Shown: positions 34,175 to 38,675, counted from the first letter of the stretch. The stretch: DNA of 64,000 bases from Simkaniaceae bacterium (GCA_040880145.1 JBBDIZ010000029.1:4820-68819); one strand, 5' to 3'. Program-made: numbers and translations. Notes: generated from the sequence alone by a model not told the origin.

Positions 34175-34813
34175 ATGTCAGATGTCAACATTGGTGATGA
34201 AGCGTATCGCCTTTCTATTTTTGGACACAATGTCGAAGTTACGAAGCCTATTCGTGAATATATTGTTGAAAAACTTCACAAGATTGAGCATTTCACGGAT
34301 CTTTTGATCGATGTTATGGTCAGGCTTGATGTGCAAAAACTTGATCATAAATGTGAACTTGTTTTGAAGTTTTCTCACTTCAAGGTCGTAACTCATGCCG
34401 ATACAACGGATATGTATGCATCGATTGATAAGGCTTTTGTTAAACTGCAAGCCAAACTTCGTCGATGGAAAGGCCGTATTCAGTCCCATCATGCGAAAAT
34501 CCCTCAACAACCGACTATCGAAAAAGTTTCTGTTAACGTCTTCGAATCAGAGGAAGAAGCTTTAGAGGAGATCAATGATCAAATTGAGGAGCAGAACCTC
34601 AACTCATTTTTAAATGAATTGCCGAAGATTGCAAAGAGTAAATCAATCCCTTTAAAGATGCTTCGAACAGATGAAGCGATCATGAAAATGGAACTCTCTC
34701 ATGATCATTTTATGCTTTATCGCTGCGAAGAGGATCAAAAATTAAAGGTGATCTATCGACGCCGTGACGGGAGTTATGGGGTCATTGCTGCAGAGGAAAG
34801 CGCTGTTTCCTGA
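34175..34813 (+). CDS. hpf: ribosome hibernation promoting factor (long HPF)
   Basis: 212 aa. GHNVEVTKPIREYIVEKLHKIEHF S30AE domain plus the C-terminal dimerisation domain (MLYRCEEDQKLKVIYRRRDGSYGVI). Confidence 0.88.
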   Translation: MSDVNIGDEAYRLSIFGHNVEVTKPIREYIVEKLHKIEHFTDLLIDVMVRLDVQKLDHKCELVLKFSHFKVVTHADTTDMYASIDKAFVKLQAKLRRWKGRIQSHHAKIPQQPTIEKVSVNVFESEEEALEEINDQIEEQNLNSFLNELPKIAKSKSIPLKMLRTDEAIMKMELSHDHFMLYRCEEDQKLKVIYRRRDGSYGVIAAEESAVS

Positions 34814-35216
34814 AGAGCGCGTACGCCAAAAATTGCTGCGTGAGATGATTAACGAGAAGGGCTATTGCTCTTCTCATATTTTAGTCGAAAGAGGGCTGAA
34901 TCAGTTACCTCACTTGGCGATGAGGGCCTCGCTTCCTGATAGACGTTTTGATCTTCTTGCATATGAAAATAAATCGTTAAACCCTCTTCTTCTTGTTGAG
35001 TGTAAGGCCTGTAAGCTTAGCGAGCGTGTGCTTGAGCAGGTATTAGGCTATAATCATTTTGTTGGAGCACCTTTTTTTGCCCTATCGAATAGCAAGCAGG
35101 TGATCACATTTTGGCAGGAGAAGGGAGAGTTAAAATACCTCCAAAAATTGCCCTCATATGATGAGCTTATTACCCTCAAAAATTCTATATCTAAAAAAAC
35201 TCACTTCAGCTGCTAA
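34776..35216 (+). CDS. HsdR-N-terminal-domain-like (PD-(D/E)xK-like) small protein
   Basis: About 146 aa. RRFDLLAYENKSLNPLLLVECKACKL...FFALSNSKQVITF resembles the type I restriction HsdR_N-like stand-alone domain. Overlaps the hpf 3' end. Confidence 0.45.
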   Translation: MGSLLQRKALFPEERVRQKLLREMINEKGYCSSHILVERGLNQLPHLAMRASLPDRRFDLLAYENKSLNPLLLVECKACKLSERVLEQVLGYNHFVGAPFFALSNSKQVITFWQEKGELKYLQKLPSYDELITLKNSISKKTHFSC

Positions 35217-36273: not shown

Positions 36274-37876
36274 AAAGCGCTATCCACAGCTTTTTTTTCT
36301 CTTGCAGATGGCAGGTAAATCTCCTCAATTAATGAGATTTAAAAATGTTCATAAAAACTTAAATAATCTCGATGCTCTTTATCTTTTTGGATTAGATCAA
36401 GGAGAGCTCTACTTAGAGCTCAAGCCTTGGTTAGAGGAGGACAAAAAACGCCGCCTCATCATTGTTTTACCGGATTTAGCGGTTTTAGCAGGGTTAGAGA
36501 ATCACCCTCTAATAATCGATCCCCAAGTGGAGTTAAGAGGCGCGTTTGAGAATGCATCTCTACAGACTTTATCGTATGATTTGGCTTTCGCCTTTCCATT
36601 TAAACGTATCGAGGTGATCTCTTTAGAAAAAACAGCTAAATCCCGCCGTTTTACTTACTTGATTAAGCGAGCGACAACACTTTCTCAAGCTCTTTTTAAC
36701 GAAGAATACCTCTACCATGGGATTGTTCAAAATTTAGTCTCTAATTTTAAAAAATTAGAGGGCTGTTTCTATGTGAATAACCAAGAAGGGGCATTTAAGG
36801 GAATCCCGGCAATTTGTTGCGGGGCAGGACCAAGTTTAGATGAGCTCATTTTACAATTAAAAAAATGCCAAAATCAAACCCTTATTATTGCTGGGGGCTC
36901 TGCAATTACAGCTTTGACTAATCGAGGCATAGAGCCTCACATCGGGATGGCGATTGATCCCAATTTTGAAGAGTATGAGCGATTAAAAGAGAATCGCGCG
37001 AATCAGATGCCCCTAATTTTTGGGGGGCGGCTTAATCACCGTGTCCTCGAGCAGTTTCAAGGTCCAAAGGGCTATTTTCGCTCGTTTACAGGCGGGCCGA
37101 TTGAACATTGGATAGAAGAGCAAATTGGGTTGAAAGAGGGCCCCATTAGTGAGGTAATCAATTTCGATGCACTCTCCATCACAACCTCGTCGATTAGTCT
37201 TGCAGCCTTTCTCGGATGCTCACCGATCTATTTAGCTGGAATCGATCTTGCCTATACCAATTTAAATCGATACGCGAAGGGGGTCATGAAAACAAGCTCA
37301 GTTGAGCTAAAGCGGTTAAAGGATGACTCTCGCGTTAGTGAATCTTACCTCTATCGCTTAGGATTAGAGAAAAAGAGAGTTCATACAAATGTCAAGTGGG
37401 TCATGGAGAAAAATTGGGTCGATGCCTTTTCGAAAAATCATAAAAAGATAGAGATGATCAATCTCTCAAAGAAGGGTTTGGGATTTAAAAACGTGCCTCA
37501 AGGTGAACTTCGAAGGCATCCTGAAAGAGGTGACTTAAAAGGCTATGTGAAAGAAATTCTTTTGAGTCGAAAGCTTCAAAATCTCAAGATGGATGAAGCC
37601 CTTCAAGATCTTCGCAAGAGCTTTCAAAGGGCATCTGAATTGGTTTTAAAAATGGAAGAAGATCAAAAGAGAGCCTTTCTCTATGAAATGGACCTCGAAG
37701 ACGAGCTTTGTTATTCTCTCGCCCTTCAAAATTATCAAAAACGGCTTGAATATAAACTAAAACTCGAAGGAGTTGATACCGATCCAAAAAGCCATCCTGA
37801 TTATTATCCCGCGTTAAAAAAAGTAATTTCCGACTACTTGCAAATTTTTGACAAAAATGATTCAGAGAGCCAATAG
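36257..37876 (+). CDS. DUF115/MptE-like (Maf-like) protein, paralog B
   Basis: About 539 aa from the ATG at 36257 (AGGAG 9 nt upstream). AICCGAGPSLDELI...LIIAGGSAITALTNRGIEPHIGMAIDPN and IYLAGIDLAYT. Clearly paralogous to the upstream gene. Confidence 0.55.
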   Translation: MHSYLEKRYPQLFFLLQMAGKSPQLMRFKNVHKNLNNLDALYLFGLDQGELYLELKPWLEEDKKRRLIIVLPDLAVLAGLENHPLIIDPQVELRGAFENASLQTLSYDLAFAFPFKRIEVISLEKTAKSRRFTYLIKRATTLSQALFNEEYLYHGIVQNLVSNFKKLEGCFYVNNQEGAFKGIPAICCGAGPSLDELILQLKKCQNQTLIIAGGSAITALTNRGIEPHIGMAIDPNFEEYERLKENRANQMPLIFGGRLNHRVLEQFQGPKGYFRSFTGGPIEHWIEEQIGLKEGPISEVINFDALSITTSSISLAAFLGCSPIYLAGIDLAYTNLNRYAKGVMKTSSVELKRLKDDSRVSESYLYRLGLEKKRVHTNVKWVMEKNWVDAFSKNHKKIEMINLSKKGLGFKNVPQGELRRHPERGDLKGYVKEILLSRKLQNLKMDEALQDLRKSFQRASELVLKMEEDQKRAFLYEMDLEDELCYSLALQNYQKRLEYKLKLEGVDTDPKSHPDYYPALKKVISDYLQIFDKNDSESQ

Positions 37877-38675
37877 TAGAAAGAAAACAAGCGGAGATTA
37901 CGTGAATAGTGATCATTGGCATTATCGCAAGAAAGAAGAAGAATTTGGCTCTTTTAACTTAGAAGAGATGAGAAAAAAAATCGATGAAGGGGAGATCAAT
38001 GATGAGACTTTTGTTAGACATAGCCAAGACCCGGATTGGAAGCAGGTAAAAGAGATCAAAGAGCTCAATATCGAATTTCTCGATACGACACCACCGATTA
38101 CAAAGCCTGAGCTTGAAGAGCATAATTTAAAGTCAGAAGAGAGAGAGAAAAAGTGGACAAGACCCTTTATCCGTTTTTTTGCCCGTATGATGGACTATTC
38201 GCTTTTTTATCTTCTTTTGTGGTGCTTCGCTTATTTTTTCAATCAGCCTTTATTTCTACTTCACCCCCTTTTTTTTCTAACAATCATAACATTTATTTTT
38301 GTCTTTATCGAAGCGCTATTCTTCTCTATCATTGGAACCACGCCGGGAAAGTGGTTTTTGAAAACCACAGTTCGAAAAGAAAATGGGAAAAAACCGAGTT
38401 ATCGCGAGGCTCTTGCTCGAGCTTTAAGTGTTTGGGGGCTGGGGTTTGGCGGGGGTCTTCCCATCATTTGTATCATCACAGGAATCGTTGCGAATATCAA
38501 GCTTTCGAACACGGGGTTAACAACCTGGGATCGCCACTATCAGTTTAGCGTTACCCACAAGCGACTGGGATTTTTCCGGACCTTCTTGACTGTTTTGTAT
38601 TTTATTTTTTTTATAGCTCTACTCAACGGCGATCTCAATATTTGGAGCCGGCTAGCTATCGGAACCAGCCTGTAG
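37857..38675 (+). CDS. GYF-like N-terminal domain + RDD-family membrane protein
   Basis: WHYRKKEEEFGSFNLEEMRKKIDEGEINDETFVRHSQDPDWKQV is DUF4339/GYF_2-like. It is followed by RPFIRFFARMMDYSLFYLLLW and three TM helices (RDD). Confidence 0.55.
   Translation: MIQRANSRKKTSGDYVNSDHWHYRKKEEEFGSFNLEEMRKKIDEGEINDETFVRHSQDPDWKQVKEIKELNIEFLDTTPPITKPELEEHNLKSEEREKKWTRPFIRFFARMMDYSLFYLLLWCFAYFFNQPLFLLHPLFFLTIITFIFVFIEALFFSIIGTTPGKWFLKTTVRKENGKKPSYREALARALSVWGLGFGGGLPIICIITGIVANIKLSNTGLTTWDRHYQFSVTHKRLGFFRTFLTVLYFIFFIALLNGDLNIWSRLAIGTSL

Follow-up and report, generated by a model that had tools for sequence, protein, structure and literature searches.

We find that five plus-strand open reading frames (ORFs) at 34175-38675 of a 64,000-nt stretch of a Simkaniaceae metagenome-assembled genome (MAG; GCA_040880145.1 JBBDIZ010000029.1:4820-68819; this whole stretch is hereafter the window) contain the local version of an operon that is conserved across environmental Chlamydiota, in which hpf, the gene for ribosome hibernation promoting factor (HPF), is joined by a gene for a stand-alone nuclease-fold protein and by genes for two paralogs, MafA and MafB, of the Maf type. 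We propose, at a probability of about 0.5, that the unit is a flagellin-independent, cytoplasmic Maf-type O-glycosylation module that is co-expressed with HPF and has a putative target and donor. This is a known glycosyltransferase family in a new, conserved and non-flagellar context that is apparently undescribed; we find no description of the operon in the literature on DUF115/Maf, nonulosonic acids or HPF in chlamydiae (including Collingro 2017, Dharamshi 2023 and the Algichlamydia paper). The five genes are:

34175..34813, plus strand: hpf, long-form ribosome hibernation promoting factor, 212 aa (PF02482 + PF16321, TIGR00741)
34776..35216, plus strand: stand-alone HSDR_N_2 / PD-(D/E)xK nuclease-fold protein, 146 aa (PF13588)
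35158..36273, plus strand: MafA, the shorter and more divergent Maf-type paralog (A), 371 aa (PF01973)
36257..37876, plus strand: MafB, the conserved Maf-type three-domain putative glycosyltransferase paralog (B), 539 aa (PF01973, AlphaFold2, Foldseek)
37902..38675 (257 aa, GTG start) or from ATG 37857 (272 aa), plus strand: GYF_2 + RDD membrane protein (PF14237 + PF06271)

Both paralogs match the MptE-like/DUF115 family PF01973 well above its cut-off of 34.6 bits, MafA with E 2.3e-24 (86.5 bits) and MafB with E 2.9e-36 (125.3 bits), so that the DUF115 assignment made in an initial annotation of the window holds in profile searches. It can be sharpened, by the results that follow, to the three-domain fold of Maf enzymes, with the catalytic residues conserved. 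Searched against the PDB, a profile of 22 MafB sequences finds the Magnetospirillum Maf 5MU5 with E 1e-11 and the archaeal MptE 6-hydroxymethyl-7,8-dihydropterin pyrophosphokinase (HPPK) with only E 2e-3. An AlphaFold2 model of MafB (pLDDT 91, pTM 0.89) shows the layout published for Maf enzymes, in which a Rossmann-like N domain of four strands precedes a central domain and a bundle of helices at the C terminus, and Foldseek ranks 5MU5 first (E 3.5e-18 over 584 columns), followed by HPPK, animal sialyltransferases and SteA. Structure models were made for MafB and the HSDR_N_2 protein, and the three-domain finding covers MafB only. The flagellar Mafs (5MU5, the MmMaf of Magnetospirillum magneticum; CbMaf of Clostridium botulinum; GkMaf of Geobacillus) have the same MAF_flag10/MptE-like centre and three-domain layout, with a Rossmann-like N domain, a sialyltransferase-like centre and a helical C-terminal bundle, share the xGAGPS nucleotide loop and the essential Asp/Ser/Asp, and are likewise soluble and cytoplasmic; no signal peptide or membrane segment is seen in the sequences of MafA and MafB. 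The chlamydial proteins differ from them in having only about 25% identity, in giving no PF20157 match, in having Tyr at the position of a His shared by all nine flagellar Mafs compared, and in being embedded in an hpf operon with no flagellin, chaperone or nonulosonic-acid genes nearby.

Mutagenesis has established E324 and D415 of MmMaf and D272, S334 and D357 of CbMaf as essential residues. Placed on the window proteins by alignment only, these residues point to the following columns:

MafB D234: Asp in 84 of 84 MafB orthologs; Asp in 75 of 75 MafA orthologs (D170 in the window MafA)
MafB S307: Ser in 81 of 84 MafB orthologs; Thr in 40, Asn in 26 and Ser in 3 MafA orthologs (N235 in the window MafA)
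MafB D330: Asp in 84 of 84 MafB orthologs; Asp in 69 of 75 MafA orthologs (D258 in the window MafA)

The window MafA keeps the CGAGPS loop, D170 and D258. The paralogy of the two proteins, also proposed in the initial annotation, is borne out by BLASTP (E 2e-19, 31% identity over 178 aa), and MafA and MafB form reciprocal orthologous groups, with 75 of 75 best matches being MafA proteins. The two paralogs score a mean of 134 bits against one another but 77-99 bits against flagellar Mafs, which makes their duplication an old one. The clade is large, comprising at least 150 representatives (50% identity clusters) that score at least 487 bits over the full length of MafB. Elsewhere, a 22-kb metagenomic contig carries, at 1-13954, at least eight full-length Maf paralogs of 588-659 aa, arranged head-to-tail with overlaps of 1-20 nt and with no other genes, a striking family expansion.

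The operon is widespread. When each GTDB species is represented by a single genome, 454 matching stretches are returned, and the best 80 of these 454 loci, which were examined, all look chlamydial (Simkaniaceae, Rhabdochlamydiaceae, Parachlamydiales, Neptunochlamydia and Algichlamydia, plus doubtful labels). Carriers include the complete genomes CP073762.1, CP073763.1, OZ244056.1, OY970369.1, OZ247587.1 and OZ156466.1, and the cultivable Ca. Algichlamydia australiensis. Locus counts refer to 85 fetched loci, two near-duplicates included, in which genes were identified by tblastn with the window proteins and ORF assignment; gene starts in loci other than the window are ORF-based approximations, and taxon labels are those of the records. 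The core hpf-HSDR_N_2-MafA-(MORN_2)-MafB is found in about 74 of the 85 loci, in these forms:

hpf-HSDR_N_2-Maf-MORN-Maf: 47 loci
hpf-HSDR_N_2-Maf-MORN-Maf plus GYF/RDD: 10 loci
hpf-HSDR_N_2-Maf-Maf: 9 loci
hpf-HSDR_N_2-Maf-Maf-GYF/RDD (the type of the window): 5 loci
minor variants of the core: 3 loci

Most of the remaining eight loci are short contigs. The first gene of the core is hpf in 73 fetched loci, and even three distant MafB homologs (31-39% identity) lie in the context hpf, HSDR_N_2, MptE-like, (MORN_2), MptE-like, convergent sigma-54 activator. Across 72 loci the PEE motif of the HSDR_N_2 protein starts a median of 43 nt past the hpf stop, leaving no intergenic space between these two genes, and the HSDR_N_2-MafA junction is tight as well: in 41 of 75 loci, no more than 30 nt separate the first aligned residue of MafA from the stop before it. 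Different chlamydial families share this core order, and it is the flanks that vary: recO is found upstream in 46 loci, at 58-4180 nt from hpf, and the sigma-54 activator lies 3' of MafB in 53 loci at a distance of 39-7149 nt. Protein searches returned MAG proteins only. Several MAG records that carry the operon (L007, L079, L080, L010, L040, L051 and others) are titled 'Chlamydia trachomatis', 'Acidobacteria bacterium' or 'Verrucomicrobiae' and are probably mislabelled or mis-binned.

The neighbourhood is therefore conserved, as the initial annotation had asked of a survey, but the five-gene unit that it had drawn has to be redrawn in two respects: the GYF_2+RDD gene is not part of the core, and a MORN_2 gene is normally present. 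The GYF_2+RDD protein (PF14237, E 1e-11; PF06271, E 1.1e-12) is encoded 3' of MafB on the plus strand in 18 loci, within 30 nt in just four of them, and in one locus (L011) a minus-strand ORF separates the two genes. In the window it has its own GGAG Shine-Dalgarno motif and a promoter-like site at 37848-37877. It is an accessory, lineage-specific neighbour outside the core.

The MORN_2 gene lies between MafA and MafB in most loci and is missing in the window, and in several lineages MORN_2 is fused to Maf proteins; one divergent locus (L088, 649-10391) encodes both a MafA-MORN_2 fusion of 989 aa and a MafB-MORN_2 fusion of 796 aa. MafA is shorter where the MORN gene is absent (median 443 vs 515 aa, p 1e-7), and the window MafA lacks about 90 consensus columns after GxDL. 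A MORN_2-repeat lipoprotein gene at 23231-24292 on the minus strand, 10 kb upstream of the unit, was considered as the missing operon member and rejected, since it encodes a lipoprotein (LAGC lipobox) that is similar through its repeats only.

No flagellar surroundings are found for the chlamydial Mafs. In 1.24 Mb from 86 chlamydial loci (within 8 kb) and in the 64-kb window, queries with the genes of a non-chlamydial Maf locus (L087) match only Maf; there are zero matches to flagellin, FliS, FliD, FliW, the synthetase of CMP-activated nonulosonic acids or NeuC. The contrast with the query locus is marked: its Maf gene is flanked on one side by flagellin, FliS, FliD and FliW, while a CMP-sugar synthetase, a NeuC-like epimerase and further sugar genes flank it on the opposite side. 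Likewise, no flagellar or nonulosonic-acid Pfam domain is found among about 55 annotated ORFs of the window. The initial annotation had already remarked on the absence of flagellin and of pseudaminic or legionaminic acid biosynthesis genes nearby, and this extends to the surroundings of the related loci.

Within the window, the genes are closely packed on one strand, and Shine-Dalgarno motifs lie inside the upstream genes, which supports the single tight gene unit first proposed. With the starts chosen in the initial annotation, hpf and HSDR_N_2 overlap by 38 nt, HSDR_N_2 and MafA by 59 nt, and MafA and MafB by 17 nt, and these three overlaps stand. The ATG of HSDR_N_2 at 34776 follows a GGGAG Shine-Dalgarno and that of MafB at 36257 an AGGAG, and both agree with the NCBI and Logan gene calls; at the MafA start (35158 or 35161) no obvious Shine-Dalgarno is seen. 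A fourth overlap, of 20 nt between MafB and GYF_2+RDD, is doubtful: a 25-nt gap is more likely, because the GTG at 37902, which is the start in the public (Logan) call, follows a GGAG at a distance of 6 nt. The MafB and HSDR_N_2 proteins are 100% identical to proteins in the NCBI calls of a Simkaniaceae MAG, and the base composition of the unit is uniform with its flanks. All four types of domain call score above the Pfam gathering thresholds, and TIGR00741 adds to the support for HPF.

The hpf product pairs the S30AE N-terminal domain (PF02482, Ribosomal_S30AE, E 1.5e-18) with the C-terminal dimerisation domain (PF16321, Ribosom_S30AE_C, E 4.3e-18), the same two domains as in the long-form HPF of 100S ribosome formation, and it passes the equivalog-level NCBIfam model TIGR00741 with 75.7 bits against a cut-off of 40.9. 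In proteobacteria hpf is located after rpoN; HPF is not known from a conserved operon that also encodes Maf enzymes and a PD-(D/E)xK protein.

The HSDR_N_2 protein (PF13588, E 4.1e-18) has invariant residues E38, R56, R57, D59, E75-C76-K77, Q88, Y92 and N93 (74 sequences for D59 and E75-C76-K77). A sequence search finds no relative with a solved structure, but its AlphaFold2 model (pLDDT 92.5) matches restriction-endonuclease-like folds in Foldseek, with the HsdR fragment 3H1T best and 9Y1L, 3IJM and Cas4 also found. The modelled fold is that of the PD-(D/E)xK superfamily with an intact D...(D/E)xK motif, and nuclease activity is a prediction. The HsdR N-terminal nuclease domain (3H1T, 2W00) has the same fold and an intact D...ExK; the window protein differs from type I restriction HsdR in being a stand-alone protein of 146 aa with no helicase motor and with hpf and a Maf gene as its neighbours. 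No HsdM, HsdS or helicase gene lies near it. A defence or restriction system was considered and rejected, as PADLOC gives nothing coherent, only weak partial matches to the N-terminal part of MTase_I models.

As to the donor, kdsA in the window, beside lptB and lptC, indicates that the organism makes 3-deoxy-D-manno-oct-2-ulosonic acid (Kdo), judging by gene content. CbMaf and GkMaf transfer Kdo from cytidine monophosphate (CMP)-Kdo to Ser/Thr, and the two facts together make CMP-Kdo a plausible donor in chlamydiae. The lipopolysaccharide (LPS)/Kdo cluster, at 2383-6456, consists of a GT9 heptosyltransferase-like gene on the plus strand and of lptB, lptC, a 187-aa ORF and kdsA on the minus strand, and adjoins a truncated-looking dapB.

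These findings suggest a model in which two soluble, cytoplasmic Mafs would O-glycosylate at least one non-flagellin protein with a CMP-activated ulosonic acid. CMP-Kdo would be the obvious candidate, as it is made for LPS and is accepted by characterised Mafs. Shewanella oneidensis offers an analogy in its bipartite and tripartite Maf systems, an established arrangement: two co-encoded, paralogous Mafs modify different serines there, and an adaptor or fused repeat sets acceptor specificity, Maf-1 and Maf-2 relying on a fused TPR domain in the one case and a cis-encoded adaptor, GlfM, in the other. MafA and MafB might similarly serve different sites or steps. Characterised Mafs all act on protein and need a protein-binding domain or adaptor, and the MORN_2 protein may be an acceptor adaptor like GlfM or the TPR domain, one that would have been lost in the window together with part of MafA. 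The analogy has limits: the Shewanella adaptor is a four-helix bundle or a TPR domain and the acceptor is flagellin, whereas the chlamydial candidate is a MORN_2 repeat protein. Co-transcription with long HPF could mean that production of the module coincides with ribosome silencing, such as on transition to a dormant infectious stage.

Most simply, the system would be a remnant of the flagellin glycosylation of a flagellated ancestor that now serves a new acceptor. Flagella have been inferred for the last common ancestor of chlamydiae, and present-day Chlamydiota mostly have partial sets of flagellar proteins only, which fits retention of Maf after loss of the flagellum. A fuller version of this idea is that MafA and MafB, with the MORN_2 adaptor in most lineages, put Kdo or another CMP-ulosonic acid on a cytoplasmic or type-III-secreted non-flagellin protein, and that they may act on a factor associated with ribosomes or hibernation whose gene belongs to the hpf operon or shares its regulation; in this much detail we regard it as a tentative and rather unlikely proposal. 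The phrase of the initial annotation, a protein- or envelope-modifying module with a novel target, likewise describes something that we infer.

Maf enzymes have been treated as dedicated flagellin glycosyltransferases, and a large clade now appears to be fixed in the hpf operon of lineages apparently without flagella. If the proposed module is real, it would provide the first natural non-flagellin Maf substrate, widening the known scope of cytoplasmic bacterial O-glycosylation, might be the first case of native protein Kdo-glycosylation, and would be a clean case of a flagellar accessory system repurposed after loss of the flagellum. For chlamydial biology, the operon is a conserved, uncharacterised unit with a possible link to the silencing of ribosomes during dormancy. 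CbMaf-type enzymes already serve glyco-engineering, so that enzymes with a new acceptor logic are of practical interest.

Several observations weigh against a flagellin-independent glycosylation module and are taken up here along with the alternatives. Glycosyl transfer, acceptor and donor are, to begin with, predictions from sequence. An alternative that we consider unlikely is that two unrelated functions share one transcript, a ribosome- or nucleic-acid-related one of hpf and the nuclease-fold gene and a glycosylation function of the Mafs, their adjacency being inherited synteny plus genome compaction. The block does sit in a wider synteny of tRNA-Leu(gag), recO, tRNA-Arg(tcg), the unit, the sigma-54 activator and tRNA-Leu(caa), and this syntenic backbone weakens the case for a common function of hpf that could be drawn from the conserved neighbourhood; gene overlap, moreover, is common in compact genomes. 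In L088 three genes, one of them on the opposite strand, separate hpf-HSDR_N_2 from the Maf pair. Because of this split and the wider synteny, we treat the unit as two tightly linked submodules, and the link to hpf may be one of co-transcription only. Against wholly unrelated functions, however, insertions are frequent on both flanks and essentially never occur inside the core (about 74 loci), and the HSDR_N_2-MafA junction, where the two submodules meet, is the tight one described above. As a separate observation, the genes that split the core in L088 are unrelated to it, and a Bac_export_1 (SctT/FliR-type) gene lies just 5' of hpf in that locus.

Classical flagellin glycosylation, with the flagellin and nonulosonic-acid genes elsewhere in the genome, would fit the Maf type of the proteins. 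Some marine chlamydiae carry flagellar genes, a flagellated ancestor has been inferred, and the searches for flagellin and nonulosonic-acid genes covered the loci and the window out of the carrier genomes. Yet no flagellar or nonulosonic-acid gene is present within 8 kb at any of the 86 loci or in the 64-kb window, unlike at the non-chlamydial query locus, and the flagellar sets of Chlamydiota genomes are mostly partial. The carriers belong to the Simkaniaceae, Rhabdochlamydiaceae and Parachlamydiales, which are not known to be flagellated, and we consider this explanation improbable.

It is about equally improbable that the paralogs are not glycosyltransferases, their MptE-like domain binding a nucleotide for other chemistry or for regulation, as in MptE pyrophosphokinase or SteA-like proteins, or one or both being pseudoenzymes. 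PF01973 includes archaeal MptE (8SD5), which shares the nucleotide-binding core, and Foldseek matches MafB to HPPK (8SBU/8SD5, E 3e-5 to 4e-4) and to SteA (E 2e-3). Counting against our own reading, the global TM-score of MafB to 5MU5 is just 0.41-0.47, and the domain orientations therefore differ. Neither paralog matches PF20157 (Maf_flag10_N) in Pfam, and both fail the PseD model NF050051, which requires 670 bits and gives them 26.7 and 14.5. MafA is without several residues that are invariant in MafB. In an alignment of 168 Maf proteins, a Tyr nine residues after the GxDL aspartate (MafB Y339, at about 37271-37273 of the window; 84 of 84 MafB, 63 of 75 MafA) stands where nine of nine flagellar Mafs and 5MU5 (H424) have His; this change may mark a different donor or mechanism, and the chemistry of chlamydial Mafs may differ from that of flagellar Mafs. 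Nevertheless, the match to Maf is 13 orders of magnitude better than that to the other families and extends across all three domains, both acidic residues essential for Maf activity are conserved, as is the Ser, and the proteins have 371-579 aa as opposed to about 215-240 aa for HPPK. Identity as MptE HPPK itself was rejected on its weak sequence match (E 2e-3) and wrong architecture, as archaeal MptE is a single domain without the N- and C-terminal Maf domains and the window proteins have 371 and 539 aa; no pterin genes lie near the unit in the window.

Modification of the envelope, with the Mafs adding Kdo or another ulosonic acid to LPS, a lipid carrier or a glycan in concert with the GYF_2+RDD protein and an EamA transporter, is very improbable, since these two downstream neighbours in the window are not conserved partners, signal peptides and membrane segments are absent from the Mafs, and characterised Mafs modify protein, even if sialyltransferase-like folds often act on glycans.

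The immediate neighbours of the unit are:

33455..34024, minus strand: recO-like gene (RecO_N), divergent upstream neighbour, outside the unit
34026..34054, plus strand: sigma-70-type promoter-like site 5' of tRNA-Arg (ATGACA-17-TACACT with TG, 9/12 matches)
34068..34141, plus strand: tRNA-Arg(tcg), ending 33 nt 5' of hpf (ARAGORN)
40024..41331, minus strand: sigma-54 activator, CtcC/AtoC-like (Sigma54_activat, AAA_lid_14, HTH_8), downstream neighbour, outside the unit

The site at 34026..34054 is a candidate promoter of the unit by its match to the consensus, and tRNA-Arg(tcg) is possibly co-transcribed with hpf. As a fixed leader of the operon this tRNA was rejected, lying within 250 nt of hpf in just 8 of 71 loci. 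Control of the unit by sigma-54, an idea suggested by the adjoining activator and by the old name of the hpf product, 'sigma-54 modulation protein', was rejected by promoter searches: no TGGCAC-N5-TTGC site is present in the window, and such sites are not enriched over background 5' of hpf in 71 loci. No sensor kinase adjoins the activator in the window.

More widely, the order at 24361-44287 is pheT ... recO, the operon, the sigma-54 activator, a HAD phosphatase, tRNA-Leu, truA and ispD. This stretch resembles the C. trachomatis CT462-CT475 backbone, with CT468 and CT469 in the place of the operon, and pathogenic Chlamydiaceae have presumably lost the operon, going by the C. trachomatis CT466-CT470 region. 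Further downstream, 45022-53683 encodes a UGP3-like uridine diphosphate (UDP)-sugar pyrophosphorylase (706 aa), a GH63/MGH1-like glycoside hydrolase (863 aa) and, directly behind a release-factor gene, two tandem GNAT acetyltransferases; chlamydiae usually have less sugar metabolism than this. Upstream of the unit, the plus strand at 29946-33451 carries a gene for a protein of 911 aa whose C-terminal domain is GH81 (beta-1,3-glucanase family) and then, overlapping it by 4 nt, an ORF of 257 aa without a Pfam match; one would not expect such a glucanase in a chlamydia, and it may be connected with a host whose wall contains beta-glucan.

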